In this document: positions 147-63,820 of the stretch, one piece after another
Layout: each line of letters starts with the position of its first letter
How positions within the stretch are numbered: position 1 is the stretch's first letter
Virus record (IMG/VR): IMGVR_UViG_3300028734_000016
DNA length: 64,000 nt
Reading direction: 5' to 3' (one strand)
DNA from: a virus
Lineage: Duplodnaviria > Heunggongvirae > Uroviricota > Caudoviricetes
Notes under the pieces: generated by a model
Databases searched by the model: none
What the model saw: only the letters and a program-made list of their open reading frames with translations
Told to the model about the DNA's origin: nothing
Translations under genes and position numbers: made by a program

Positions 147-1956
147 ATGCATTTGCATCTACAATTATCATTCTATTATATTGTAATTTTTTAGTATTTG
201 TATCATCAACATACAATTCTTTTGTATAAGGTAAATATACGTAACTTGCTAATGTAAAATCTAATCCTCCAAAATTATCACAAACACTATTCATTTGAAA
301 ATAATCAGAAATTGTATTTATTCTAAAAGAATTTCCAATACTATTATTTGTAAATCCAATACCTACTATATTTGAATCAAATGTACTACCTATGTTATTT
401 GAAGTAAATAAATTGGAAATGTTATTACTAGAGAAAGATGAATTTATACTATTTGACGTGAAATGATCAGCAATTATATTATTTGTAAAAAAATCTCCTA
501 TATTATTATATAAAAATTGTATTCCAATAGAATTAATCTGAAACGTATTTCCAATAGAATTACGGGTAAATTCTGTATTTATAATATTAATGTTGAAATT
601 GTTTCCAATGACATTAGCATTAAAATTGCTATCGATAACGTTATTATAACAGTCATCACCAAGTGTATTACTAGAAAAAGATTTACAAATCATATTATTA
701 TAGAATCTATCACCTATATTATTTCCAGTGAATTCTGTACTAATAATGTTATTATTACATATTCTACCAATTTTATTATATGAGCCAGCAGAACCAATAG
801 AGTTATATTTAAACTCATATCCAATAGAATTAGCCTGAAATGTATCTCCAATAGAATTGTTTTTAAAATTATCATCAATTAAATTGTTTTTAAAATTATC
901 ACTAATACTATTACCAATAAAATTACGACCAATAGTATTGTTATTAAAATCATTACCAATAGTATTGTTATAGAAATTCACATTTATATTATTATCTCTG
1001 AAATTGACACCTAATATAACATTATTTGATCCATTTATTATATTTGAGTTTAATTCAGATATATTAATTATATTTGAATATGATGTTGAATAATAGTAGT
1101 CAAAATCACTCCACATATAACTATCAGTATATCCTGTTGAACATGGCATGGTTATATCACCAAAAATTAGATTATATTCAGTACAACTTATATAAGATAG
1201 ATTATAATACTCAAATAACTGCCAAATACCATTTGAATCATCATTATTATTTGGATTTATATTTGTTGTATTATTTTTTATGCAAATATAAATTTGATTG
1301 GTTTCAGAAAATAATACAACATCTTTGGAATTGTATGTTGTTCCTGAATTCCATATATTTGTAACATTAATTTGCCATCTTCTAAATTTAACATTTCTAA
1401 AATCAAAAGGAAAATCGTTATTTTGTATTGTATCAATTCTTCTGTAAATATAGCCAGTTGTGCATCCTGGTACAACTGTTTGATTATTATTAAAATTATA
1501 ATAAATTACATCTTGTGAATATAAATAAGAATGAGCTTCTGGTTTCAATTTATCTAATCCAATTGCGGTAACTAATAATGGTTCAGTTATACCTGAATTT
1601 AAATCACTAGTATATGGAATTATATGTACTGTACTATAATCAGTAATTAAATATTGTGTACCAATAGTTAATGATAAAGTATTTATCAAATCTAATAATT
1701 CACTATATGTAACATTAGTTACTGATGCTCCTCCTGAAGATCCATTTAAACCTGAAGTTCCAGAAGTACCTGTAGTTCCGTTTATTCCTGATGTGCCATT
1801 AGTTCCGTTTATTCCTGATGTTCCAGAAGTACCTGTATATCCTGTAAAAGAATAAACATCATTAAAATTGGAATTTATTTTAATGAATGATTCTCTTAAA
1901 TTATCTCCAGTTCCATCGTTTGGAGATGAGCCAATATTAATTAATTGTTTGCTCAT
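145..1956 (-). CDS. fibre-like repeat protein: short collagen-like block (GTSGTSGINGTNGTSG...) followed by ~25 tandem 11-residue N-x-I-G-x-x-F repeats
   Basis: 603-aa ORF; repeats read directly from the translation; antisense ORFs 517-783, 1074-1364, 1278-1475 lie inside it and are judged artefacts. Confidence 0.8.
   Translation of the reverse strand: MSKQLINIGSSPNDGTGDNLRESFIKINSNFNDVYSFTGYTGTSGTSGINGTNGTSGINGTTGTSGTSGLNGSSGGASVTNVTYSELLDLINTLSLTIGTQYLITDYSTVHIIPYTSDLNSGITEPLLVTAIGLDKLKPEAHSYLYSQDVIYYNFNNNQTVVPGCTTGYIYRRIDTIQNNDFPFDFRNVKFRRWQINVTNIWNSGTTYNSKDVVLFSETNQIYICIKNNTTNINPNNNDDSNGIWQLFEYYNLSYISCTEYNLIFGDITMPCSTGYTDSYMWSDFDYYYSTSYSNIINISELNSNIINGSNNVILGVNFRDNNINVNFYNNTIGNDFNNNTIGRNFIGNSISDNFKNNLIDDNFKNNSIGDTFQANSIGYEFKYNSIGSAGSYNKIGRICNNNIISTEFTGNNIGDRFYNNMICKSFSSNTLGDDCYNNVIDSNFNANVIGNNFNINIINTEFTRNSIGNTFQINSIGIQFLYNNIGDFFTNNIIADHFTSNSINSSFSSNNISNLFTSNNIGSTFDSNIVGIGFTNNSIGNSFRINTISDYFQMNSVCDNFGGLDFTLASYVYLPYTKELYVDDTNTKKLQYNRMIIVDANA
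276..1056 (-). repeat. coding tandem repeat, ~33-nt period (11-aa NNxIGxxF units)
   Basis: periodicity visible in the ORF translation. Confidence 0.55.
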
Positions 1957-7047: not shown

Positions 7048-8145
7048 TTATTTTAACCACTTCTTAACTGCTTTACCAGTTACTCCATAAACTCTACCAA
7101 CAGCTTCTAAACTTGTATCAGATATCATTAATCTTAACTCATCTTTTGTTGGTCTGTTCTTTACTTTTCTTTCAGATAATCTGTAGCAGTCATAACATTG
7201 TTTAGAATTGTGTTTAATTTCTTTTCCACATGCACAATAATTTTTTATTAAATTATTGTTTATTTTAATTTCTTTTTTACCTGATTTTAATTTTTTTATT
7301 CTATCATTTCTAATTATATTATAATAATATTCATCAACTTCACTTTTGATATTTAAATTTTTAACACCAAGAAACTCATACATTTTTTTGAAATCTACTC
7401 TTCTATTTACGTTTATTCTATAACAGTTATCTTTACTTATTTGTATAGTATAATGAATATTTATAATATCAAGTGAGTTACAATAAATATCTACTATATC
7501 TTTAGACATATTAGAAAAATTATAATAATAACCGAAATATTTTTTTCCTTCTTTTTTAATTATTGTATTTTTATATAAGCAACCATCTGAATGAAACAAT
7601 CCACGTATTATGTTTTTGTGATTTATATTTTTTATTTGAAAATCTTCTAGTATTATTTTTCTTTTGTGCTTTACTCCTTTTCCTATTTGAGGAAATAAAT
7701 ATTTTAAAGAGTTGGAATATACTGAAACAATAAACATATTATATTTAGTTTTATGAATATTTATTTTATTAAATGGAAATAATATTTTTAAATTATTTTC
7801 ACATTCAGTTACTATATTATAATACTTACTATCTAAAAATATTCGAATTTGATATGATGATCTTTTTGTTTTTATTATATGACCATCTCCTAAATATAAT
7901 CCTAATATATAATTATATTCTAATTTTTTATCAGATAAATAATTATTAATATCACAATTATTTTTTAATTTTTTTTGATTTTCTAATTTATTATATTGAT
8001 TGAATTTTTCATTGTTATTTAACCAATATCTAATATTACTTCTTGGTATATTATATTTTTTACTTAATTCTGACTGTTTTGATCCATTATTATATTCTTC
8101 TATTATTTTTATGATTTCACTAACTTCATATACTCTATATGTCAT
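7048..8145 (-). CDS. LAGLIDADG homing endonuclease (two LAGLIDADG motifs) with N- and C-terminal HTH-like regions
   Basis: YILGLYLGDGHI and IIRGLFHSDGCL motifs; tracked ORF extends to 8295 but that extension translates the tRNA gene, so the ATG at 8145 (MTYRVYEV) is preferred. Confidence 0.85.
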   Translation of the reverse strand: MTYRVYEVSEIIKIIEEYNNGSKQSELSKKYNIPRSNIRYWLNNNEKFNQYNKLENQKKLKNNCDINNYLSDKKLEYNYILGLYLGDGHIIKTKRSSYQIRIFLDSKYYNIVTECENNLKILFPFNKINIHKTKYNMFIVSVYSNSLKYLFPQIGKGVKHKRKIILEDFQIKNINHKNIIRGLFHSDGCLYKNTIIKKEGKKYFGYYYNFSNMSKDIVDIYCNSLDIINIHYTIQISKDNCYRINVNRRVDFKKMYEFLGVKNLNIKSEVDEYYYNIIRNDRIKKLKSGKKEIKINNNLIKNYCACGKEIKHNSKQCYDCYRLSERKVKNRPTKDELRLMISDTSLEAVGRVYGVTGKAVKKWLK

Positions 8146-8249
8146 ATTATTTTTTATTTTATATATAAAAAATTCTATGACAAAAAGAATAAAAATTGAA
8201 CATATTTTTAAATAAATTGTATCATAATGATTAATCATTGAATATATTG

Positions 8250-8337
8250 TACTCCTGGTCGGACTTGAACCGACACGCCTACTATTGTTCAGCACATGTT
8301 TCTAAAACATGGATGTCTACCATTCCATCACAGGAGC
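8250..8337 (-). tRNA. tRNA-Leu (anticodon TAG), type II with long variable arm, A73
   Basis: hand fold: acceptor GCTCCTG/CAGGAGT, D-loop GGAATGGTAGAC, anticodon stem CATGT/ACATG loop TTTAGAA, T-arm GTCGG-TTCAAGT-CCGAC. Confidence 0.85.
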
Positions 8338-18334: not shown

Positions 18335-20218
18335 TTAATTGTTCAACATTTTTTCTAAATCTTCAACACTTAACAATTTCACTCCAATCTCTTCTGCTTT
18401 AACTGCCTTGCTTGATAAAGAATTTTTATCTTTCATAACTAAGTATGTTAAATTTTTAGATACACCAGATGCAACTTTACCTGATTTTGAAATTATGATT
18501 TCTTCTAAATCTTTTCGTCGTATTCCAGTAAAACAAAAAGACACATTTTCTAATTCGTTTGTTACCATAATAATATTTTCTTTTTTTGTTTCAATTGTTA
18601 TTTGAGGTTTATCTTGTAACCATTCATAAAATGTATCATAAGCATCAAGATATGCATGTGCAGATTTATCTGAGAATCCTTTAATTGATAGAATTTCGTC
18701 AAGTGATGGTTTACCTTCAAAATGCATTAGTAATTCAATTTTTTTACTACCAAGATTCACAAAGAAATTTGAAGAATGCATTAATTTAGATAATTTGACA
18801 TTTTTTATAGAAGATTGAATACTATTATATATAATTTCAGCCCTTCTCTCACCAAATCTATCTAATGATTCTAATTCTGATTGTGTTAATTCCAATATTT
18901 GTTTAACAGTCTTATATCCAGAGTTATATAACTGATTGATAATACCTTCTGATACATTATCAGCTTCAAGTATTTCAAAGAAAGATATCAATTTCTTAAT
19001 TTCTTGTTCTTCAGTTCCTTCAACCATTAATTCTACTTCATTTTCATTCCAGAAAACTTTTGAACTACCAAAAGTTGGCATTTCAAATCCAGTTGCAGAA
19101 ACAATTTGAACAATCTTTGGTATTACCAAACCTGACCGAATTATTTTTACAATACTTCCAACTCCTAAATCATGTTTTTTTACAAATTTATAGTTATTTA
19201 AGGTGACACGTGATACTGTAGCACCATCAATATTCACTGGAATTATTCGCCCAACTGGCTTAAGTAATCCGTTTTTCGAAACTTCTTTTACAATTTCAAG
19301 TATGGTTGTTTCTGCTGATTCTGCCCATTCAGGATTCTTATATGCTCTTGCGTATGATGGATTATTGTTAGTTTCACGACCAAGTTTTTTTCTGATGTCT
19401 TTGTCATTTATATCAAAAACAAGTCCATCAATATCATAATCTTTACCCCATTCAATAAAAATATCATTTAGCTCATCAAAATTCAAATCTTTTGCTTTGA
19501 ATATTTTGTATGGTACATTAGATAAATTAGTACTGATGAAATCTAATTGTTCAGATTTATCTTGAGTGAAATCTTCGCTTGCATAACCATAACGAATATG
19601 TTTAGCAAATTTCAAATCTTCGGATGGAGTATCAGAATTTTTAAGTCCAGCAATCATATTACGAGCATTCTTAAATGGCTTACCATTATCTCTATAAAAT
19701 ACTCTACTATTAAAAACTTGTTTTGGAAAAATCATTTCTCCAATAGTAAACAAATTAATATTTTTACTATCATCATTCAACTTTTTGTAGTGCAAATGCA
19801 TAGTTTCGCCAGTGATGCCATTTCCTCTTGACCAAGCAAGTTGTTTATATTCATCTTTAAGAATTGACATACCATCATATTTTGATGTACAAACCAATTC
19901 TGTTTCTAATGGTAACCCTTTATTTTTCAACCATTTGTGAATTTCTACAATTGTGTGATATTTATCCAATGAATACATTGGAAATTTTAAATTTTCTTTT
20001 CTGTCTGGATTGACATCTTCGCTATCTTCAATAACGCCAGATTCAAATATTTCATTATCTGGGTCTAATTTTTGAAATGTAGAAATTACTTTATCATATT
20101 CAGGATCACTGATTTCAGGTTCTCCGTCACGATATTTCTTATTTAGTTTTTTGACTTCAACTGCTGCAGACTCAAACATACCGTATTCTAATAATCGATA
20201 AATTTCTGATAATTCCAT
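18335..20218 (-). CDS. ligA: NAD-dependent DNA ligase
   Basis: N-terminal YRDGEPEISDPEYDKV, adenylation motif SKYDGMS, C-terminal BRCT-like region. Confidence 0.9.
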   Translation of the reverse strand: MELSEIYRLLEYGMFESAAVEVKKLNKKYRDGEPEISDPEYDKVISTFQKLDPDNEIFESGVIEDSEDVNPDRKENLKFPMYSLDKYHTIVEIHKWLKNKGLPLETELVCTSKYDGMSILKDEYKQLAWSRGNGITGETMHLHYKKLNDDSKNINLFTIGEMIFPKQVFNSRVFYRDNGKPFKNARNMIAGLKNSDTPSEDLKFAKHIRYGYASEDFTQDKSEQLDFISTNLSNVPYKIFKAKDLNFDELNDIFIEWGKDYDIDGLVFDINDKDIRKKLGRETNNNPSYARAYKNPEWAESAETTILEIVKEVSKNGLLKPVGRIIPVNIDGATVSRVTLNNYKFVKKHDLGVGSIVKIIRSGLVIPKIVQIVSATGFEMPTFGSSKVFWNENEVELMVEGTEEQEIKKLISFFEILEADNVSEGIINQLYNSGYKTVKQILELTQSELESLDRFGERRAEIIYNSIQSSIKNVKLSKLMHSSNFFVNLGSKKIELLMHFEGKPSLDEILSIKGFSDKSAHAYLDAYDTFYEWLQDKPQITIETKKENIIMVTNELENVSFCFTGIRRKDLEEIIISKSGKVASGVSKNLTYLVMKDKNSLSSKAVKAEEIGVKLLSVEDLEKMLNN

Positions 20219-50153: not shown

Positions 50154-52682
50154 TTAAACTTTAGTATTTTCTGTCAATATGTTACCATTCTTAATTTCGT
50201 TATTTGAAATTTTAAAGATTTTAACTGAAGAACTTTCTTTATCATATATCAATGATAATGTATCACCAACTGATATTTCTTGATCAATAATAGCATCAGT
50301 AAGTTTATCTTCAATATTACTCTGAATGACTCTCTTTAATGGTCTTGCACCATAATTTTCATCATAACCATTTTCAAATAAATAATCTTTAAGTGATTGA
50401 GATATAATTACATCATATCCTTTTTCTTTAAGATTTGAAATTAAAGATTTACATTCAACATCAACAATGCTACAAATGTTTTCTTTACTCAAAGAATTGA
50501 AATTGATAACTTCATCTACACGATTTAAAAATTCAGGACTAAAAACTTTTTCTAATTCTTTTTTAAGAACTGAATTTTTAGAGTCTTGATTATTTTTATT
50601 AAGTCCAAATCCAATACCAGTACCAAAATCTTTCAATTTTCGTGAACCAGCATTTGTTGTCATAACAATAATAGTATTTTTAAAATCGACTTTACGTCCA
50701 TTACTATCTGTCAATACACCATCATCCAACACTTGAAGAAGGATATTTTGAACATCAGGGTGAGCTTTTTCAATTTCATCAAGAAGAATAATAGAATAAG
50801 GCTTACGTCTAACTGCTTCAGTTAATTTACCACCATCTTCATATCCAACATATCCAGGAGGTGCTCCTACTAATCTAGATACTGAGAATTTTTCCATAAA
50901 TTCACTCATATCAATTCTAATCATAGCATCTTCAGAACCAAATAACTCCTTTGCCATAATTTTAGCAAGATATGTTTTACCTACTCCAGTAGGTCCTGAG
51001 AAAATAAATGTGCCAACTGGTTTATCATGACTATTTATACCAACTCTTGATCTCTTAACTGATTGAACTATTTTGTCAACTGCTTCATCTTGTCCAATAA
51101 CAATAGTTTTAACTTTATTAGCCATATATTTAAGCTTATTGTTTTCATCAACAGAAACATTATCTACAGGTATTTTTGTTATAAGAGCAACAACTTCAGC
51201 TATATCCTGTTGTGTTACCAAAGGACGATTATCAGAATGTGATTGACTCCATGTTTCTTTTTCAGTTTCAAGTTCAGATTTCCATTGTTTTTCATTATCT
51301 CTATGTTCAGCAGCAATTTCATATTTCTGATTTGAAATACAATCAAGTTTTTCCACAATAGATATTTTTATTTTTTTGCTGAGTTCAACAATTTTTACAG
51401 GAATAGCACTTGTACCATTAACGTGAACCATAGCGCCAGCCTCATCAAGAACATCAATTGCCTTATCTGGAAAGAATTTTTCTGATATATATTTACCAGA
51501 CAAATTAACACAAGCTTCTAATGCATCATCAGTATATGTAACTTTGTGATGATCTTCATATTGTTTTTTTATATTTTTCAGAATTTCTAAAGTTTCTGAC
51601 TTACTGGTTGCCTCAACAACAACTTTCTGAAATCTACGTTCTAATGCAGCATCTTTTTCTACATACTTACGATATTCTTCAAGTGTAGTAGCACCAATAC
51701 ATCTAAATGTACCTCTTGCTAATCCTGGTTTCAACATATTGGAAGCATCGAGTGAACCTTGGGCTGAGCCAGCACCTATAATAGTATGAATTTCATCAAT
51801 AAAAAGAATAATGTCAGGATTTTCTTCCATTTCTTTGACAATACCTCTTAATCTTTGTTCAAATTCACCACGATATTTAGTTCCTGCTACTAAAGAACCC
51901 ATATCAAGAGTAATAATTTTCTTATCCTGTAAATTTTCAGGAACAAGTCCATCTACGATTAACTGAGCCAATCCTTCTACAATAGCAGATTTTCCTACTC
52001 CAGGTTCTCCTACCAAAACAGGATTGTTTTTCTTACGTCTTGATAAAATCTGTGAGATTCTTTTAATTTCATCTGCACGTCCTACTACTGGATCAAGTTT
52101 ACCTTCTTTTGCAAGATTGGTCAGATTTGTACCAAATTGATCAATCAATTTAGTTTTTGATTTGCTCTTTCCTTTTACTTCTTGTTCTTGTTCTTCGTCC
52201 ATGTTACTATTTTCTAATTCATCATTAATATTAAGTTCATCTTCTTCATTTTTTAATTTGTTTTTTAAACTTCTTAAAATTTCAGGTGATTTATTAAATA
52301 AATCTGAAACAAGGTTATTATTATTATCCAATATTGCATAAAAAACATGCTCAATACAAACTTCATCTGAGTCCATTGATTTGGCAAAAACCACAGATTC
52401 TTTTAGAATTTTTTCAGTTTCTAATTCTAATGGAATAGAAGCATTCTTTCTAAGAGAATTCAAACCATTCTGTTTTTGTAAATCTTTAGACCAATCACGA
52501 ATTGTTGATTTGATAGCATTAATATTGAGATTTAAATCTCTCATTATATTAGATGCTTCAGAATATTCCTCATCTATCATTGCTAAGAATAAATGCTCAG
52601 GCCTGATTGTGTTAGATTGAATAATAATTGCAATTCCCTTACTTAGTTTAATAACTTCTTCTACTTCTTTCGAGTAATTCAT
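50154..52682 (-). CDS. clpC: ClpA/ClpC-type AAA+ unfoldase (two Clp_N repeats, D1 and D2 ATPase modules, short middle region, IGF-type ClpP-docking loop)
   Basis: [15 protein letters not shown] + ILFIDEIH (D1); [15 protein letters not shown] + [14 protein letters not shown] (D2); GTGIGFGL loop. Confidence 0.9.
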
Positions 52683-54010: not shown

Positions 54011-55651
54011 ATGAGTTTAATTTTAAGACAACAAAAAGGAGAAAGATTAACTATAACCGAAATGGACGGTAATTTTTCATATTTAGAATCTCTATCTGGC
54101 ATTTCTCACACATCAGGAACAAATGGAAGTTCAGGAACAAATGGAAGTTCAGGAACAGATGGAACATCAGGAACAGATGGAACATCAGGTACAAATGGAA
54201 GTTCAGGAACAAATGGAAGTTCAGGAACAAATGGATTAAGTGGAGATAAATATACTACATTTTCGAATAATACATTAGAAATATCAACAGGAGGTACAAT
54301 ATCATTTTTTGTTGAGCCTAATTTATCATTATCTACAGGACAAGATATTATAATAACACATGACTCATCAAATTTAATGATAAATTATATATTATCATAT
54401 AATAAAATAACAGGTGAAATATTTTCAAATATTACTTCATCTATTGGTAGCGGAACATATAATTTTTGGAATGTATCATTAAATGGTGCTCCTGGTCCTT
54501 CAGGAATAGATGGAACATCAGGAATAGATGGAACATCAGGAATTTCAGGAACAGATGGAACATCGGGAAGTTCAGGAACAGATGGAACATCAGGAATAGA
54601 TGGAACATCAGGAATAGATGGAACATCAGGAATAGATGGAACATCAGGAATAGATGGAACATCAGGAACGAATGGAACATCAGGAAGTTCAGGAACAGAT
54701 GGAACATCAGGAACGAATGGAACGTCAGGAACAAATGGAACGTCAGGAACAAATGGAACATCAGGAACAAATGGAACATCAGGAAGTTCAGGCACAAATG
54801 GAACATCAGGAACGAATGGAACGTCAGGAACAAATGGAACGTCAGGAACAAATGGAACATCAGGAAGTTCAGGCACAAATGGAACATCAGGAACGAATGG
54901 AACGTCAGGAAGTTCAGGAACCAATGGAACATCAGGAAGTTCAGGAACCAATGGAACATCAGGAAGTTCAGGAACAGTATCATTAAATGGTACAACGAAT
55001 TATGGACTACTTACATTAAATGTATCATCTCCAAATGTAAATGTTGAAAGTGGATTAACATATCATAATTCATTATTAAATTTAAATGGTAATTTAATAT
55101 TACCAAAGTTGTCAGGAACAGGTATAATGATAGACAATACAACACCGACATTTGGATATAAAGATTTAATCGGTCAGATAATACCAAGGGTTGGTGGATC
55201 TACTGCTCCTTCATTATCACCGTTAAGAGGAACTAATATACTTAATTATACATTTCAAGTTAATGATAAGATAGATAATATTACATATCATATGCCACAT
55301 GATTATTTACCAAACTCTGATATATATTTACACACACATTGGAGTCATAATGGTACAGCAATTTCAGGAACATTTGCATTAAACTATTATGTAAATTACA
55401 GTAAAGGTTATAACCAATCAGGACAAACATTCAATTCTGAATTGACTATACCACAAACAATTTCTGTAACAGGAACAACAGATCGTCCAAGATGGGGACA
55501 TTTTATAGATGAAATCAAATTAAGTAATATAGGTGGAGATTCAACTCATTTAAATACATCATTATTAGAAATTGATGGAATTATTGAAATTGCATTAAAT
55601 GTAAATAGTATACCTACTATAACAGGGGTACAACAACTAATCCATTTATAA
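54011..55651 (+). CDS. collagen-like repeat protein (two G-T-S-G-x-x-G blocks) with a non-repetitive C-terminal domain; fibre/fibril candidate
   Basis: 546-aa ORF; preceded by (AAAAAACATT)x3. Confidence 0.8.
   Translation: MSLILRQQKGERLTITEMDGNFSYLESLSGISHTSGTNGSSGTNGSSGTDGTSGTDGTSGTNGSSGTNGSSGTNGLSGDKYTTFSNNTLEISTGGTISFFVEPNLSLSTGQDIIITHDSSNLMINYILSYNKITGEIFSNITSSIGSGTYNFWNVSLNGAPGPSGIDGTSGIDGTSGISGTDGTSGSSGTDGTSGIDGTSGIDGTSGIDGTSGIDGTSGTNGTSGSSGTDGTSGTNGTSGTNGTSGTNGTSGTNGTSGSSGTNGTSGTNGTSGTNGTSGTNGTSGSSGTNGTSGTNGTSGSSGTNGTSGSSGTNGTSGSSGTVSLNGTTNYGLLTLNVSSPNVNVESGLTYHNSLLNLNGNLILPKLSGTGIMIDNTTPTFGYKDLIGQIIPRVGGSTAPSLSPLRGTNILNYTFQVNDKIDNITYHMPHDYLPNSDIYLHTHWSHNGTAISGTFALNYYVNYSKGYNQSGQTFNSELTIPQTISVTGTTDRPRWGHFIDEIKLSNIGGDSTHLNTSLLEIDGIIEIALNVNSIPTITGVQQLIHL
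54470..54970 (+). repeat. coding 9-nt G-x-x collagen-like repeat block (second block; first at ~54100-54240)
   Basis: antisense ORFs 54385-55047 are repeat artefacts. Confidence 0.8.
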
Positions 55652-56480: not shown

Positions 56481-56514
56481 AAAAAAGAGCAGATAAAAAT
56501 CTACTCTTTTTTTG
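56481..56514. terminator. hairpin AAAAGAGCAGAT...ATCTACTCTTTT + T-run (paralog of 36061-36095)
   Basis: read directly. Confidence 0.6.
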
Positions 56515-56517
56515 TTT

Positions 56518-59500
56518 TTAATAAACTAATTCTAAGTGAGAAACTAATTCTTCGTCTTTATCAACTTCAATTGATGCATCAAAATTTATACTATGCACCT
56601 GTTCAATAATTACAATTTTATTTACTTTATTTTTCAACTCATCAATAAATTCTAAAAATTGCTGAACAGATTTTGTTTTTTTACCATCAATTAATTTACC
56701 CATAATTTCATCCAATACAATAAACGTAGATTTTGATTTGACATTTATTTGTCGTAATGCTATCTTCAATGCAAGAGCACAAAATGTTCTTTCTTTTCCA
56801 GAACTTTCAATTGCATTTTGACTGGAATCTAGCCTATCATCTGCACTAAGCCTTAAATTTAAATTATCATCAAAAAATAATGTAAAATTAACATTTATTA
56901 ATAATTCATTCAATTCTTTATTAATTAAATGAATAGACTTTTTCAATAAAAAAGTAGGTAATCCATCACGACTAATACATTTTTGATACTCCTTTAATAA
57001 CTCATCTTTTTTCTTTTGTTTTAAATATTTTTTTATCTTAGTTGAAATTATAAAAATATCATTTTCTTTGAGTATAATATTTTTTTCCATTTCTATATTT
57101 ATTTGTGATAAATTTTTTATTTGTTCTTTAACGACTTTAATATTATTATCCACATCATCTATTGATAATTGAATAATTTTATTTTCATCTATTTTAACTT
57201 TATATTCTTGATATTTTTCTATTTCTAATTTTAGTTCTTTTATTTTAAAATTAAAATTTTCGATTGATAAAATAATATTATCTCTATTTGACATTTTTCT
57301 GTTTCTTAACTCAAAATTATCTTTCTTAGTTTCCTCAATTGAAATATCATCATCTATACCTTCAACATTAAAATTTTTCAATTCAGACTCAATATTTTTT
57401 ATTACAATTGATGTATCTAATTTGCCTTTTTCTATGTTTTTTATTAGTTCTTTCCCTTTCTCAATATTTTCATTTAATGTTTCAGATTCATCAAATATGT
57501 TATTCTCAATTTTTTCTATTAATTTATTTAAATCTAAATTGTCTTGAGTCAACTTCTTACTGCTACCAATTTCTTTCAATTTAGATAATATATCATCAGG
57601 GTATTCTCCTTGAATTAACCTTTTTTTCATGTCTTCCAAATTAAGAATATTTGTATTACATTCAATAGATTCATTTTTTAAATCTTTATACTTTAATATA
57701 CAATCTTTAATTATCAAAGAATTTGGTTCTTTTTTAATTTCAAGACTTTTAATTTTATCTTCTAAATGAGCTAAGTGTTCTGAATATTTTGGATCATTTT
57801 TATCATAATCTCTACCACAGCTAGGACAAGATTTTGAATTTTTGAATGTTTCTATTTCTTTATCTAATTCCTCATTTGAATTTTTAGCGTTAACTCCATC
57901 TTTTTGTAATAATTTTATATTAGATGATAATTCTTTTAAATTTAATTCTAATTCTTGAATTTCTGATGTTATTTTTTTTATTTCATCCTTTATGATATTA
58001 GATTTATTATTTTTAATAACTTCAATTTGTAAATCATTTGCATTTATTTTTGATGATATTTTTCTAATTTCAGATTGTTTTAATTCATCAATTTTAATAT
58101 TAACTTTATCTATTTTATTATCAGATTCTAATAATGAAGTTTTCAAATTTGAAATTTCATCTTTTCGTTCAGAAATTTTCAAGTTCGTTTGCTTCAATTT
58201 AATTTTATATTCATCAAGTTTAGATGAATCGAATTCAGTAGGTAATTTATCAATGTCTCTATCTAAAATTGTGCTTTGAATTTTAGATTCTTCAATTTTA
58301 GATTCATAATTGTTGATGGTATTCAAATTTAAATCTTCATTAAAAGTTAACATTGATAAATCAATATTATTTAATTTTTTATTTAAATTATCTCTATCTG
58401 TATTATAATCAGATAATTCTTTTTCATGCTTCTCAATATCAGAATTATTAGTATCAATAATATCTTTAATATCAATAATTTCAGTATTCAATTCTTTCAC
58501 ACGAGATTCAGAATCTTGAATATTTACTATTAATTTTTCTTCTACTAATTCTTTTTTATATTCTTTAAATTCATTCAATTTAATTTCAAAAATATCATAA
58601 CCAGCATCTCTGATGATGTTATCCATAAATACACTTCTATTTTCTGATAATAAATCATTTAAATTATCAGCATTAGTGAATGACAATCTAATAAAATCTT
58701 TCAAATCTCCTAAAATAGAGTCCAATTCTTTTTGAGTCTTAGCTTTAATTTCATCTGTTAATTTATTTTCTTCACAAATATTCTCGCTTTTATAAAAATC
58801 CAATGATGTAGGACAGCTTGTTAATGCCGTGTGATTCTTATTCCAAACTCTTTCTGTCTTTCTCTGAATAACGAATTTATTACCATTTGAATTAATAATT
58901 GCACCACCATTAACATAATCTAAATCTCTTTTGTTATTTATATATCTTGAATCTCCAAATTTTTCAGGACTTAATGTTGTCGTAGTCTTACCATAAAGAA
59001 TATAAGTAAGTGCATCTAAAATAGTTGTTTTACCTTCCTGATTTTCTCCATGAATTTGTACAATTCCATTAATATCAGCCCAATCTATAACATTATCATC
59101 TCCATAAGATTTAAAATTACTAAACCAGAATTTATCAATACTCCATTCAGTATTTTTTAAGCATTCTACCAATTGAACTCTACTATTTATTATATCATCA
59201 ATTTTAAGAATAGATTCAATATCATCTTTTTTGTATTTTTGCTCTTCTAAATATTCATTAAATATTTCTTTCTGTGTTTCAGTATCAGTCAAATCAATTG
59301 ATTCTGATAGCATTTTTGATGATAATATATCTGTGTATAAATAAACTTTTTCAAAAATAACTTTAGTTGTGCTAAATTTATTTTTAATATAATCTCTTAT
59401 TTTCTTTTCATTAACAGTATTTATAATTGATGAATATTCTTTCCAATGAACTTTAATTTCAGTATCTGTTCCAATTTTATCAGCAGACAAATTTAAATTG

Positions 59501-60273
59501 TCATAATCTGATGATTCATCAATATAAAGATTTATGAAAGTGTGTTCATTGTCAATATCATATTCAGTGACATCAAAATCTGATGGTGATTTTATATCCC
59601 ATAATAAAAAACCATGATTTTCAATTGTTTCACCATATGATTGTTGTATAGTTGAGCCACAATATGCAGCAGATTTATCATTTCTTAAATACTGACGCTT
59701 GTGGATATCACCTATTAGCACAAAATCATTATTATTAAAATAATTCATATTTTTGTACTTGTTTGCATCATTAAAAACTTTACCAGTATTTGATGTTACA
59801 TTTAAAACTGGGTCATGAAATAACCCAATATATATTTTACCATCATATTTTTTAATATTTTTCCATGGATCGTTGTCTTTATCTGAGTGTTCATAAACAA
59901 CCCAAACAAAATTGTTATCTTGCTTATCATCATAAAATCCAGTTTTATCATAATAAGTAACATTTGGATTATTCATTAGTTTAACTACAGTTTCTATGCT
60001 GTCGATTCTATTTAAATTTTTCTTACGAATATCATGATTACCACGAACTATTATAACTTTAGCAATTTTTGATAATTCATTTAAGAAATTTCCAGCTATA
60101 ATTTCAGCTTCATTTGAAATTTCAATATAACTTTCAAATAAATCACCAACAATAACAATTCTATCTGGTGTAATTTTGCGTAATTTTTTTATTATTTTTT
60201 GAAAAATATCATTATATTCTTCATGTCTTTCAAGGTTTCTAATGTGAACATCAGCTAAGTGAGCAATTTTCAT
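56518..60273 (-). CDS. fused SbcD/Mre11-type nuclease + SbcC/Rad50-type ATPase, single 1251-aa polypeptide
   Basis: N-terminal phosphoesterase motifs HLADVH, VGDLF, RGNHD, IGDIHKRQ; Walker A GENQEGKTT; long coiled coil with CPSCGR zinc hook; C-terminal SSGKERTF...IVLDEIMGKLID and VHSINF. Confidence 0.85.
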   Translation of the reverse strand: MKIAHLADVHIRNLERHEEYNDIFQKIIKKLRKITPDRIVIVGDLFESYIEISNEAEIIAGNFLNELSKIAKVIIVRGNHDIRKKNLNRIDSIETVVKLMNNPNVTYYDKTGFYDDKQDNNFVWVVYEHSDKDNDPWKNIKKYDGKIYIGLFHDPVLNVTSNTGKVFNDANKYKNMNYFNNNDFVLIGDIHKRQYLRNDKSAAYCGSTIQQSYGETIENHGFLLWDIKSPSDFDVTEYDIDNEHTFINLYIDESSDYDNLNLSADKIGTDTEIKVHWKEYSSIINTVNEKKIRDYIKNKFSTTKVIFEKVYLYTDILSSKMLSESIDLTDTETQKEIFNEYLEEQKYKKDDIESILKIDDIINSRVQLVECLKNTEWSIDKFWFSNFKSYGDDNVIDWADINGIVQIHGENQEGKTTILDALTYILYGKTTTTLSPEKFGDSRYINNKRDLDYVNGGAIINSNGNKFVIQRKTERVWNKNHTALTSCPTSLDFYKSENICEENKLTDEIKAKTQKELDSILGDLKDFIRLSFTNADNLNDLLSENRSVFMDNIIRDAGYDIFEIKLNEFKEYKKELVEEKLIVNIQDSESRVKELNTEIIDIKDIIDTNNSDIEKHEKELSDYNTDRDNLNKKLNNIDLSMLTFNEDLNLNTINNYESKIEESKIQSTILDRDIDKLPTEFDSSKLDEYKIKLKQTNLKISERKDEISNLKTSLLESDNKIDKVNIKIDELKQSEIRKISSKINANDLQIEVIKNNKSNIIKDEIKKITSEIQELELNLKELSSNIKLLQKDGVNAKNSNEELDKEIETFKNSKSCPSCGRDYDKNDPKYSEHLAHLEDKIKSLEIKKEPNSLIIKDCILKYKDLKNESIECNTNILNLEDMKKRLIQGEYPDDILSKLKEIGSSKKLTQDNLDLNKLIEKIENNIFDESETLNENIEKGKELIKNIEKGKLDTSIVIKNIESELKNFNVEGIDDDISIEETKKDNFELRNRKMSNRDNIILSIENFNFKIKELKLEIEKYQEYKVKIDENKIIQLSIDDVDNNIKVVKEQIKNLSQINIEMEKNIILKENDIFIISTKIKKYLKQKKKDELLKEYQKCISRDGLPTFLLKKSIHLINKELNELLINVNFTLFFDDNLNLRLSADDRLDSSQNAIESSGKERTFCALALKIALRQINVKSKSTFIVLDEIMGKLIDGKKTKSVQQFLEFIDELKNKVNKIVIIEQVHSINFDASIEVDKDEELVSHLELVY

Positions 60274-60442
60274 ATATTTATCTAATATTATTTTATTTTA
60301 TTTTTAAGTTTATATTTTTACAAATATAATGAATTTATTTCATAAATCAAAATATTTATAGTTTAACTTTATTTTATATGATCAAAAACATTAATTGTTT
60401 TATAATATATAATAAATTATTAAAAAATAAACAATAAAAACT

Positions 60443-61621
60443 ATGAAATGGACATTAGAAATATGTCAAAAAGCAGCATTAAAATATGAATATAGAAGTG
60501 ATTTTAAAAAATTAGATAATTTAGCATATAATGCTTGTGTAAAAAATAAATATTTAAATATTGTTTGTTCACATATGAAATATAAAATTAATACTCCAGG
60601 ACATTGGACACACAATAAATGTCAAGAAGCAGCATTAAATTATAATTCTATATCAGATTTTCAAAAAAATGAAGCAACTGCATATAATAAGTCATTAAAA
60701 AATAATTGGCTAAATAGTATTTGTTCTCATATGAATTTAAGTCATAAACCTAATAATTACTGGACAATAGAAAAATGTCAAGAAGTAGCATTAAAATATT
60801 TAACCAGAACTGATTTTAGAAAAAATGATGCTAGTGCATATAGAATATCTATTTCAAAAAAATGGATAGAAAAAATTTGTAATCATATGACTTATGTTAA
60901 TAATTATTGGAATTATGATAAATGCAAAGAAGAAGCATTAAAGTGTAATAGTAGAAATGATTTTCAAAAAAAATATAGAGGTGCTTATAATTTTTCAAAT
61001 GTAAATAATATATCTAATGATATCTGTTCACATATGATAAAAATTGGTAGTAAAGAATTTAGATGTATTTATGCTTTTGAATTTGATGATAATTGTGCAT
61101 ATATTGGATTGACATATAATATAAAAATTAGAGAGCAGGAGCATATTAAAAAAGGTCCAATTTACAAACATTTACAAAAAGCAAGCAATAAATATAAATT
61201 GATACAATTAACTGACTATATTAATAAATCAGAAGCACAGAAATTGGAAGAATATTATATGAATGAATACAAAAATAATAATTGGAAATTATTAAATACT
61301 AACAAAAAAAGTACATTAGGAGGATCTGCTAAATTTTGGACATATGAAAAATGTAAATACGAGGCATCAAAATATATTTATAAAGATGATTTTCTAAAAA
61401 ACAATAGTAGTGCAGCAGCATCTGCAATTAAAAATGAATGGTATAAAGATATATGCTCTCATATGATAGCAAAAAAAAGAAAAAATTCATGGCCAGAAGA
61501 TGATATTATTTTTTTAATTGAAAATTATCATATAGGAATAAAATGTTGTGCTAAAAAATTAAATAGGTCTTATTATTCTGTTAAATCTCAATATCAAGTA
61601 TTAAAAAACAAATTCAAATAA
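60443..61621 (+). CDS. GIY-YIG endonuclease with 5 tandem ~48-aa W-T-x-EKCQEAALKY...ICSHM repeats
   Basis: GIY-YIG core IYAFEFDDNCAYIGLTYNIKIREQEH; repeats read from the translation (4 before, 1 after the catalytic core). Confidence 0.75.
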   Translation: MKWTLEICQKAALKYEYRSDFKKLDNLAYNACVKNKYLNIVCSHMKYKINTPGHWTHNKCQEAALNYNSISDFQKNEATAYNKSLKNNWLNSICSHMNLSHKPNNYWTIEKCQEVALKYLTRTDFRKNDASAYRISISKKWIEKICNHMTYVNNYWNYDKCKEEALKCNSRNDFQKKYRGAYNFSNVNNISNDICSHMIKIGSKEFRCIYAFEFDDNCAYIGLTYNIKIREQEHIKKGPIYKHLQKASNKYKLIQLTDYINKSEAQKLEEYYMNEYKNNNWKLLNTNKKSTLGGSAKFWTYEKCKYEASKYIYKDDFLKNNSSAAASAIKNEWYKDICSHMIAKKRKNSWPEDDIIFLIENYHIGIKCCAKKLNRSYYSVKSQYQVLKNKFK

Positions 61622-61635
61622 TTATATATATCAGC

Positions 61636-62055
61636 ATGATAACAGAATTCAAATTATTCGAGAACTCAGATGATAAAGTCACATTGGTATTGGATGATAT
61701 TGTAGATTACTTTGATAGTCATGAAGATTCAATACGAAATTTCATTTTCAAATTATTTAATTTCAACAATAACATTGTTGAATTTAATTGTAATAAATGT
61801 ACAGATGATATAAATGGTGTTACAAATTTTATACATTCAAATAAACATCATAAAGGAATTATAAACGGTAGAAGTTATGGATTTAATTATGATCTTAAAC
61901 ATATATACTTAACATTGAGATTGAAAAGAATAAAATTTAGTCATATAGTAGACACAAATTCTCAGATGACAATTTATGGAAATATTCCTGGTGATATAAA
62001 AAAAATAATAAATGATATTAATATAAAAAGACAAGCAAATAAATTTAACATATGA
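61636..62055 (+). CDS. MIxEFKLFEN...CNKC...NKFNI family protein
   Basis: paralog of 62470-62907. Confidence 0.6.
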   Translation: MITEFKLFENSDDKVTLVLDDIVDYFDSHEDSIRNFIFKLFNFNNNIVEFNCNKCTDDINGVTNFIHSNKHHKGIINGRSYGFNYDLKHIYLTLRLKRIKFSHIVDTNSQMTIYGNIPGDIKKIINDINIKRQANKFNI

Positions 62056-62468
62056 TACTAACTACTTCAGCAATTTTAAACATTTTAATAATACTTTTTT
62101 TATTATTAATATCTGGTATATCTAAATCTATAACTGATATATCATCTTCTCCTAATTTATTTTACAAGTCAAGATTATATTTAAAATATAAATTAAATCC
62201 AAAATTTTGGGAACAAGGATTGGGGTCTCTCAATAAATATAAAAATGCCAATCCATTAAATGGAGAAAAATTCATAGGAAGTACTACTATTTTTGTTGTG
62301 TTTACTGATGCATGGCATTTATTTTGGTTTATATCTGAAATAACTATGATTCTTGCATCTGTTATAATCACATTGAATACATCTATTTGGTTTGTTATGT
62401 TGGCATTTTCAATTAAACTGATATTTTTTGAAATTGTTTTTAATTATTTAAGGAAAAAAATTAATTAA
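62052..62468 (+). CDS. multi-pass membrane protein
   Basis: 138 aa, 3-4 hydrophobic segments; ATATGA overlap. Confidence 0.5.
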   Translation: MILTTSAILNILIILFLLLISGISKSITDISSSPNLFYKSRLYLKYKLNPKFWEQGLGSLNKYKNANPLNGEKFIGSTTIFVVFTDAWHLFWFISEITMILASVIITLNTSIWFVMLAFSIKLIFFEIVFNYLRKKIN

Positions 62469-62469
62469 T

Positions 62470-62907
62470 ATGATTATAAATTTCAAAATATTTGAAAATA
62501 CAGAAACCGAAACAACATTCATACTAAATGATTTGTTAAATTACTATTCTGGTAGTTACACGAAAATTAAAAAATTTCTTAGTAATTTGTTGATAGTTGA
62601 TACATTAGTTGAATTTAATTGTAAGAATTGTTATGATAAAGAAAAAAATATTTTTATAGATGTACCTCAAATAGTTAAAGGTAGAATCAACACCATAACA
62701 GAGTGTACGACTGGATATCAAGGCACTTTACAACACAAGAAAAGAATATTTGTTCTATTATCATTAATATTAACTACAAATGATAATTATATTTACCATG
62801 TTGACAATAAATCATCATTTACTATTTATGGTAATATTACAGAAAAACAGAAAAAAGTAATCAATGAAATGAATTTAACAAGAATCTCAAATAAATTCAA
62901 CTTATAA
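62470..62907 (+). CDS. MIINFKIFEN...CKNC...NKFNL family protein
   Basis: paralog of 61636-62055. Confidence 0.6.
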   Translation: MIINFKIFENTETETTFILNDLLNYYSGSYTKIKKFLSNLLIVDTLVEFNCKNCYDKEKNIFIDVPQIVKGRINTITECTTGYQGTLQHKKRIFVLLSLILTTNDNYIYHVDNKSSFTIYGNITEKQKKVINEMNLTRISNKFNL

Positions 62908-62952
62908 TAATATAAAAGATGATAATTATTAGTAAAGGTTATATTTTTTTTG

Positions 62953-62960
62953 TATCTTTG
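62953..62960 (+). promoter_or_regulatory. plus-strand TATCTTTG box ~30 nt upstream of the ATG at 62990
   Basis: TTTTTTGTATCTTTGCG. Confidence 0.45.
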
Positions 62961-62989
62961 CGAAATATAATTATAAATAAAAATAATAT

Positions 62990-63421
62990 ATGAACTCAAA
63001 AATAAATTCCTCTATAAAAATTAGTTCTGATACTGAAAAATTTCTAAATAATTATGAAGAAATATATAAAAAGAAATATGAAGAAAATATAACTGATAGT
63101 TTCACATATAGAGGTATACCATATTCTTGTTATGATGAATTCGCACTATTAATATTTATGTATAAATATCCATATATTTGGAAAACAGATAATAAAAAAA
63201 CAAATAAAAAAATACAAAGAGAAGTAAAAAAATATACATTAGATTCTGTGATAACGAAAATAGAAGAAACACCAAAATTATATTATGAAATAGAAGAATA
63301 TACAAATAAAACATCACTGGTTTGGAAAAGTTCATATTTCATTTTTTCATACTATTTATTTTTAAATGCTGTAAATTATACTCCATCATGGATAATATCA
63401 ACAAGAAAATTTAATATATAA
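62990..63421 (+). CDS. hypothetical protein (...RKFNI tail)
   Basis: 143-aa ORF. Confidence 0.5.
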   Translation: MNSKINSSIKISSDTEKFLNNYEEIYKKKYEENITDSFTYRGIPYSCYDEFALLIFMYKYPYIWKTDNKKTNKKIQREVKKYTLDSVITKIEETPKLYYEIEEYTNKTSLVWKSSYFIFSYYLFLNAVNYTPSWIISTRKFNI

Positions 63422-63530
63422 TTATGATAATTGAAAAATTTAATATATTTAAAAGAAAAAAGAAAATATATAATTATGATAATTGAAAAATTTAATATAT
63501 TTAAAAGAAAAAAAGAAAAAGAAAAATATT
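63421..63530 (+). repeat. tandem direct duplication (~52 nt x2) of a gene start AATTATGATAATTGAAAAATTTAATATATTTAAAAGAAAAAAG
   Basis: two copies read directly; first copy gives a 20-codon truncated ORF. Confidence 0.8.
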
Positions 63531-63820
63531 TCTTAGTTTTATTCAAACCAGATGAAGGAGATTATTTTATATTATATAAAATAATTCTTGGAATTGAAGA
63601 ATTTGTTCTTACTGACAAAATTGATTCAAGTAATATAGATATCCTTAAAAAGAAAAATACCAACATTGAAAGTTTTACTACAATTGAATTAGCCAACGAT
63701 AGATTAGATATTGTAATACACAAATACAATGATCACCAATGGGCTAATAGAAATAATTGGATGATAAAAACTTTTGATGAGTTGAATTTTTTATTCACTA
63801 CAAATAAATTTAATATATAA
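63476..63820 (+). CDS. MIIEKFNIFK...NKFNI family protein (start placed at the ATG of the second repeat copy)
   Basis: tracked ORF 63431-63820 begins at a non-ATG codon inside the duplicated leader. Confidence 0.55.
   Translation: MIIEKFNIFKRKKEKEKYFLVLFKPDEGDYFILYKIILGIEEFVLTDKIDSSNIDILKKKNTNIESFTTIELANDRLDIVIHKYNDHQWANRNNWMIKTFDELNFLFTTNKFNI

Follow-up and report, generated by a model that had tools for sequence, protein, structure and literature searches.

The stretch of DNA analyzed here, IMG/VR record IMGVR_UViG_3300028734_000016 of a virus of the Caudoviricetes (64,000 nucleotides, or 64 kb; referred to as the window, to which all coordinates refer unless another contig is named), contains an open reading frame (ORF) in which a GIY-YIG nuclease core is embedded in five copies of a helical repeat. 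The ORF stands alone in intergenic DNA, outside any intron or intein, and is transcribed divergently from a gene for a fused Mre11-Rad50 protein. Its product is probably a free-standing homing-type GIY-YIG endonuclease whose modules bind an extended DNA target. An earlier note on this DNA had described the core and the repeats; absent from it were a 51-aa three-helix tail and the observation that the whole ORF forms an insertion/deletion (indel) cassette.

The encoded protein and the features of the locus are summarized in Table 1. The long start of the ORF is favored because the ortholog of a related contig, L001, shares the start MIKW. Repeat 4 follows a short linker of 6 aa, and its W35 is replaced by I, L, or F in orthologs. 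The protein has a computed isoelectric point of 9.4, and every module carries a net positive charge. Four N-terminal and one C-terminal repeat copies, the number given in the earlier note, were recovered with 61 to 82 bits by a hidden Markov model (HMM) of the unit that was built solely from other proteins, and a shuffle test gave a concordant result: pairs of units share 18 to 24 of 43 residues (mean, 20.1; 42 to 56% identity), versus a mean of 3.1, a top mean of 5.8, and a top single pair of 12 in 5,000 shuffles of the ORF protein. The repeat length of about 48 aa stated in that note was close; more exactly, a folded unit of 43 aa is joined to a linker of 6 to 9 aa, which corresponds to a period of 49 to 52 aa, and the N-terminal units start 52, 52, and 49 aa apart. 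No further units were detected in the six-frame translation of the window with a similar family HMM that also contained the full-length units of the ORF itself.

The ORF protein is a member of the GIY-YIG superfamily with intact catalytic residues, as had been proposed. The Pfam family PF01541 matched residues 208 to 279 with 28.5 bits, above its gathering score of 22.6, and Y210, Y220, G222, R230, E269, and N285 do not vary among 61 aligned homologs. These positions correspond to the GIY tyrosine, the tyrosine and glycine of YIG, and the arginine, glutamate, and asparagine of I-TevI-type enzymes, and their spacing is I-TevI-like. In the AlphaFold2 (AF2) model, the core has a beta-beta-alpha-alpha-beta-alpha topology, with strands at residues 206 to 214, 218 to 224, and 251 to 255, two helices between the second and third strands, and a final helix at residues 262 to 278; this predicted secondary structure is compatible with the alpha/beta fold of the superfamily, in which helices flank a sheet of three strands. 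The top Foldseek match in the PDB was the GIY-YIG domain of UvrC, at a template modeling (TM) score of 0.51 on the target and an E value of 2.5, which is not significant because the query was the whole multidomain model.

The C-terminal tail is basic (net charge, +8), with AF2 helices at residues 352 to 364, 366 to 373, and 377 to 391. An alignment of 17 tails revealed the pattern W-x2-E-x3-FL-x2-N...G-x2-YC-x2-LN(R/K)(S/T)-x2-S(V/I)K, and the tail is conserved in, and specific to, this subfamily. By eye it looks Myb/SANT-like. Myb matches to the tail of a relative were all subthreshold (Myb_DNA-bind_5, E value of 0.013), the tail of the window ORF itself had no match, and a tail profile had no sequence match in the PDB.

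Table 1. Coordinates of the GIY-YIG ORF, its modules, and the boundaries of the cassette
Feature	Residues	Window positions	Strand	Remarks
Intergenic region		60274..60442		AT-rich; from the Mre11-Rad50 fusion gene to the divergent ORF; presumed promoter(s)
Left-boundary 9-mer		60414..60422	+	AAATTATTA; 8/9 identical to the right-boundary 9-mer
Cassette		60423..61615		1,193 bp; present here, absent from L006-L009 (blastn)
Whole ORF	392 aa plus stop	60443..61621	+	ATG start; R-R-R-R-GIY-YIG-R-tail
Repeat 1	3-45	60449..60577	+	60.7 bits (unit HMM without this protein)
Repeat 2	55-97	60605..60733	+	73.2 bits (same HMM)
Repeat 3	107-149	60761..60889	+	81.9 bits (same HMM)
Repeat 4 ("minus-1" unit)	156-198	60908..61036	+	75.0 bits (same HMM); adjoins the core
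GIY-YIG nuclease core	204-293	61052..61321	+	Pfam PF01541; motif residues
Repeat 5 ("plus-1" unit)	299-341	61337..61465	+	68.0 bits (same HMM); preceded by a conserved LGG linker
C-terminal three-helix tail	342-392	61466..61618	+	AF2 helices; alignment of 17 tails
Right-boundary 9-mer		61616..61624	+	AAATAATTA; contains the stop codon; equals the junction of the gene-less allele

The Repeat Unit and Its Protein Family

Consensus and conservation were derived from 498 distinct units of 120 homologs. The unit consensus is (KPNGY)-WTKEKCKEEALKYKTRSEFQKNSSSAYSAARKNGWLDEICSHM, in which W1, A10, F19, H42, and M43 are near-invariant, and C6, K12, Y13, A26, Y27, W35, and C40 are each kept in 84 to 91% of the units. 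The most variable positions of the folded part are 17, 20, 24, 28, and 31, with entropies of 3.1 to 3.6 bits, and position 29 has an entropy of 3.08 bits. Orthologous units retain residues of helix 3 that are specific to the repeat index, such as YNKSLKNNW in one unit and YRISISKKW in the next, and it is at position 29 that conservation among orthologs most exceeds that among paralogs (+0.33). A zinc or disulfide site formed by C6, C40, and H42 was tested and rejected: V, I, or L can take the place of C6, and the losses of C6 and C40 are statistically independent of each other (141 observed versus 148 expected).

The structure prediction that the earlier note had recommended gave units made up of four short helices, with a beta-bridge of one residue closing each unit. 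The predicted local distance difference test (pLDDT) score was 92.4 for the whole protein, with a predicted TM score (pTM) of 0.50, and 88.5 for a single unit (repeat 3), for which four helices were also predicted. Because the pLDDT is high at a pTM of 0.50, the domains are predicted confidently and their mutual orientation is undefined, a model that fits units folding independently, as beads on a string.

The repeat is an abundant, unnamed helical module without a solved structural relative. As in the earlier note, it was not recognized as a known domain: it matched nothing in Pfam-A (24,736 models) or NCBIfam. When 101 diverse units were scanned singly against Pfam at an E value of ≤1, no family was matched by more than two units, and no match to DUF723 or another zinc finger family was seen among them; likewise, neither the window ORF nor the 101 units matched NUMOD, IENR, or zinc finger families of Pfam. 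A weak match to DUF7667 (PF24704) was not reproducible, being seen in 2 of the 101 units, and was treated as noise. Profile searches of the PDB with the whole protein and with the unit returned no sequence relative beyond marginal GIY-YIG matches, and Foldseek against BFVD returned uncharacterized phage homologs only. In PHROGs, the array matches phrog_20046 ("unknown function"; E value of 4e-60), so the family had already been clustered earlier. In addition, a faint precomputed match to DUF8019 (PF26058, of a later Pfam release) is present on 4 of 120 homologs, a family that may model the unit. Neither phrog_20046 nor DUF8019 carries a function or a name, and none of PF26058, DUF8019, and DUF7667 turned up in a paper in full-text literature searches. 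Neither this repeat nor any GIY-YIG fusion is contained in the work on STAR, MOON, and pTERF, which are new DNA-binding repeat families (PMC11417379), or in a survey of repeat proteins (PMC10392669).

The family is large. A word-indexed search with the full protein as query retrieved 666 proteins, and the unit profile matched 9,660 representatives of 50%-identity clusters at an E value of ≤1e-3 and 3,755 at ≤1e-30, with up to 18 matched stretches per protein; the number of repeats ranges from about 3 to 18. In a set of 5.8 billion proteins, the unit profile matched 23 short proteins of 47 to 91 aa with one or two units, which are probably fragments and tell nothing about architecture. The commonest architecture is R(1-9)-GIY-YIG-R(1-9), with a nuclease of about 100 aa whose position in the array varies. 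Most members possess no domain besides the nuclease and the repeats, and most are without the tail. The earlier note had suggested looking for the repeat in fusion with other nuclease cores, and such fusions were found: in P0109 and P0214, six or nine units are followed by an MTES_1575 restriction endonuclease-like domain that scored below the gathering score (E values of 4e-6 and 6e-7). P0209 has a ResIII/DEAD superfamily 2 helicase followed by 11 units, and P0236 has an N-terminal GIY-YIG domain (21.1 bits, just below the cutoff of 22.6) followed by six units. Further architectures are arrays alone and arrays with C-terminal domains lacking an assignment, and a few members have NUMOD-like tails at subthreshold scores. 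In P0157, P0164, and P0178, the C-terminal domain appeared T5orf172-like by eye, an assignment that was dropped because these domains match neither Pfam nor the family GIY-YIG HMM.

All GenBank phage homologs, which come from Vibrio Schizotequatrovirus, Rhizobium phages, and BcepSauron, are annotated as hypothetical proteins. They occur at one to six places per genome, and the number of copies varies within this range among near-identical Vibrio phages. Bacterial copies are annotated merely as "GIY-YIG nuclease family protein." One of these, the 11-unit homolog P0015, is located in the chromosome of Shewanella putrefaciens (CP066369.1; L010 10001..13355), where it is flanked by a class-II aminoacyl-tRNA-synthetase-like gene (tRNA-synt_2b plus HGTP_anticodon) and a glycine-cleavage operon. 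It adjoins a DUF4062 gene and lies among housekeeping genes, with no obvious prophage; the locus may be a small defense or selfish islet.

Presence and Absence of the Cassette in Related Phages

The window is taken to belong to an uncultured large phage because its relatives are IMG/VR contigs of 64 to 235 kb and the closest cultured phages share about 25 to 30% identity in the neighboring gene. This neighboring gene (56518..60273, minus strand) encodes a 1,251-aa protein in which an Mre11/SbcD-type metallophosphoesterase and a Rad50/SbcC-type structural maintenance of chromosomes (SMC) ATPase form a single fusion, and it is kept in all related phage contigs examined. Scans for consensus promoters and terminators provide no information at 24% GC.

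Four IMG/VR relatives, L006 to L009, share 85% DNA identity with the window across the Mre11-Rad50 gene and 90% amino acid identity as measured on the N-terminal 400 residues of the Mre11-Rad50 protein used as query. In blastn alignments of these contigs, window positions 56510 to 60422 are followed directly, without interruption, by positions 61616 to 62057, and the cassette missing from these contigs consists of the ORF and 20 bp upstream. No unit or GIY-YIG signal was detected in the part examined of the L006 to L009 DNA that adjoins the Mre11-Rad50 gene. The two boundary 9-mers (Table 1) are possibly a microhomology, and a chance resemblance is also possible in DNA of 24% GC.

A second, independent case of presence and absence, which supports the mobility of such genes, is that of Vibrio phage vB_ValM_R10Z, whose homolog and a duplicated terminator hairpin are both lacking in ValKK3, the flanks of the two phages being 97% identical. 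The R10Z cassette (L003) lies between two terminator-like hairpins, at 1470..1517 and 2765..2810 of L003, with the sequence GAAAAGGGTTGC(G/A)CTATGCAGCCCTTTTT; the gene-less ValKK3 has one copy. Comparison of these sequences suggests that the cassette was gained or lost by recombination at the hairpin.

An ortholog is found at the same locus in L001 and L005, whose Mre11-Rad50 proteins are 57 to 62% identical to that of the window. These orthologs are 57 to 60% identical to the window ORF and have four or three N-terminal units. In the distant contig L004, a gene with GIY-YIG and repeats is again next to the Mre11-Rad50 gene. A few kilobases from the latter gene, L005 also contains fragments of an IS605 OrfB/Cas12f-like TnpB gene (L005 1448..2729).

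Candidate Role of the Nuclease and Its Repeats

The protein resembles the T4 Seg family and I-TevI/I-BmoI in belonging to the GIY-YIG superfamily with the residues Y, Y, G, R, E, and N intact, and it resembles the Seg-type homing endonuclease genes (HEGs) in being encoded by a stand-alone intergenic ORF between conserved genes that is precisely present or absent in close relatives. In I-TevI and the Seg enzymes, an N-terminal GIY-YIG domain is followed by a linker and a single C-terminal DNA-binding region (zinc finger, NUMOD, or helix-turn-helix [HTH]), whereas the nuclease of the window protein is internal and is flanked on either side by copies of an unrelated module, with four units ahead of it and a single one behind. 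This architecture is new among GIY-YIG enzymes; described HEGs have the nuclease at one terminus. A modular beads-on-a-string design is common to I-TevI-type enzymes and the window protein (PMC10448857).

The concept of modular targeting has a precedent because the T5orf172-type GIY-YIG HEGs possess repeated CapR/DUF723/DUF4397 zinc finger DNA-binding domains (Barth, Dunham & Seed 2023, PMC10448857). For these HEGs, it was proposed that copies of a small module jointly give specificity, and their number and order vary by recombination (PMC10448857). The window protein likewise has multiple copies of a small module that folds independently, with a proposed joint target specificity. However, the T5orf172 zinc fingers, which have a CxxC...CxC motif, occupy the end of the protein that lies opposite to the nuclease (PMC10448857), whereas the window unit is an unrelated, all-helical module of 43 aa without a metal-site signature that is present on both sides of the nuclease and is not matched by the Pfam models of those zinc finger domains. 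TALE (transcription activator-like effector) and TALE-like arrays were also compared, namely, TALE, RipTAL, Bat, MOrTL, and STAR (PMC4787788, PMC11417379). TALE arrays, which are natural or engineered nuclease partners, likewise string together a variable number of helical repeats, in which a few hypervariable positions are set in a conserved scaffold. TALE units have 33 to 35 aa and two helices, carry a hypervariable di-residue, form a continuous superhelix, and read one base each, whereas the window units are globular four-helix modules connected by linkers, at the mutual identity given above; no PDB match to TALE structures was obtained by sequence or by fold.

That the ORF encodes a nuclease and forms a mobile cassette is very likely. 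Given what the nuclease is and how the cassette is distributed, the reading with the best support is a GIY-YIG endonuclease of the free-standing homing type. A role of the repeats as a DNA-recognition device is quite probable. Targeting is assigned to them because most family members have only the nuclease and the repeats, and they are read as target recognizers because all of the fusion partners that could be identified act on nucleic acid, the number of units before and after the core is highly variable, the units are basic, and orthologous units keep their index-specific residues in helix 3. The modular DNA-recognition array envisaged in the earlier note is therefore supported as an interpretation by the fusions, the variable number, and the charge, with DNA binding itself inferred.

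In the proposed mechanism, the free-standing gene would be carried by an uncultured, AT-rich, jumbo-class phage, and its product would be a GIY-YIG domain with a single active site inside a flexible array of small four-helix modules. These modules, along with the C-terminal three-helix tail in this subfamily, would bind extended DNA on both sides of the cleavage site. K12, R/K16, K/R32, and N33 are candidates for conserved basic contacts of each module, and variable contacts may come from positions 24, 28, 29, and 31 of the unit, on the face of helix 3 that is exposed. When gene-carrying and gene-less phages infect the same cell, the gene-less allele would be cleaved by the enzyme between Mre11-Rad50 and the ORF downstream, and repair by recombination, with the gene-carrying genome as the template, would bring in the 1.2-kb cassette.

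A further-reaching and tentative idea is that the unit is a new, very abundant modular DNA-reading repeat in which helix 3 residues read short subsites according to a decipherable code. It is similarly doubtful whether, under such a code, the target is set by how many units flank the nuclease on each side and in what order, and natural shuffling has retargeted GIY-YIG, PD-(D/E)xK-type, and helicase effectors; if true, the protein would be a natural "nuclease-in-the-middle" analog of TALE nucleases or zinc finger nucleases. Programmable DNA-targeting tools have had homing endonucleases and TALE or zinc finger arrays as their natural sources, and the present unit is unnamed yet occurs across some 10^4 clusters of proteins. 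Should the modules read DNA, a recognition rule would be derivable from the natural variants, which number in the thousands and whose gene-less target alleles are known, and the target diversification by free-standing nucleases of marine and jumbo phages would be explained. Otherwise, a phage protein domain of high abundance is still without a function.

Several observations weigh against the homing endonuclease interpretation. The unit has no structural similarity to any DNA-binding fold. Moreover, a purely selfish role agrees poorly with an ortholog that is held at one locus, with its catalytic residues intact, across phages that are 57 to 62% identical in the neighboring gene, with the recurrence of the gene beside Mre11-Rad50 genes, including that of the distant L004, and with the chromosomal Shewanella copy beside a DUF4062 gene among housekeeping genes. 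These points, and the moron-like duplicated terminator of the R10Z cassette, would be accounted for by an accessory phage or bacterial nuclease that is kept for the benefit of its carrier, for example, in degrading the DNA of the host or of competitor phages, in marker exclusion, or in antiphage defense, with repeats that bind DNA for target discrimination and a patchiness that reflects ordinary accessory-gene flux rather than homing. We consider this alternative unlikely: PADLOC returned no significant match to a defense family, and the precise intergenic indel of the cassette, together with variable copies in near-identical Vibrio phages, is a classic signature of free-standing HEGs. Selfish and useful roles overlap and are not exclusive, as the T4 Seg enzymes do both jobs.

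Less probable again, and improbable on the whole, is that the repeats are spacers or scaffolds for protein or ligand binding, comparable to TPR, Sel1, or FF-like repeats, and that the tail and the nuclease domain target the DNA. Most family members have repeats and a nuclease and are without the tail, all identified fusion partners of the array act on nucleic acid, and a repeat number of about 3 to 18 is as expected of an array that sets the length of the target. Finally, a compositional or chance artifact of an AT-rich ORF, or a zinc finger array of the CapR/DUF723 type, is brought to mind by the 24% GC genome and by the conserved C6, C40, and H42 but is extremely improbable, having been refuted by the excess of identities over the shuffles (20.1 versus 3.1 of 43), the 9,660 family representatives, the lack of a CxxC...CxC motif, the replacement of C6 by V, I, or L, the independence of C6 and C40 losses, and the absence of DUF723 or other zinc finger Pfam matches in the 101 units.

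Other Genes of the Window

The window has a GC content of 24% and encodes T4 gp9/10-like baseplate, NAD-ligase, ClpB-like, collagen-like, and LAGLIDADG proteins. Among them are an NAD-dependent DNA ligase with BRCT (18335..20218, minus strand), a full-length ClpB-like double-AAA+ chaperone (50154..52682, minus strand), and a protein with collagen triple-helix repeats (54011..55651, plus strand). The gene at 7048..8295 (minus strand) combines an HTH (CENP-B_N/HTH_28) with LAGLIDADG_3 and represents a second, unrelated homing-endonuclease-like gene in the window.

Four successive small ORFs lie at 61636..63820 (plus strand), starting at 61636, 62470, 62990, and 63431, none with a significant Pfam match. 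Each ends in (N/R)KFN(I/L), and two of them share the N terminus MI(T/I)xFK(L/I)FEN. Between two paralogous ORFs of this group (61636..62055 and 62470..62907; 35% identical, E value of 5e-21), a second indel absent from L006 to L009 was found at 62058..62449, corresponding to an ORF at 62052..62468 (plus strand) for a hydrophobic, membrane-like protein of 138 aa.
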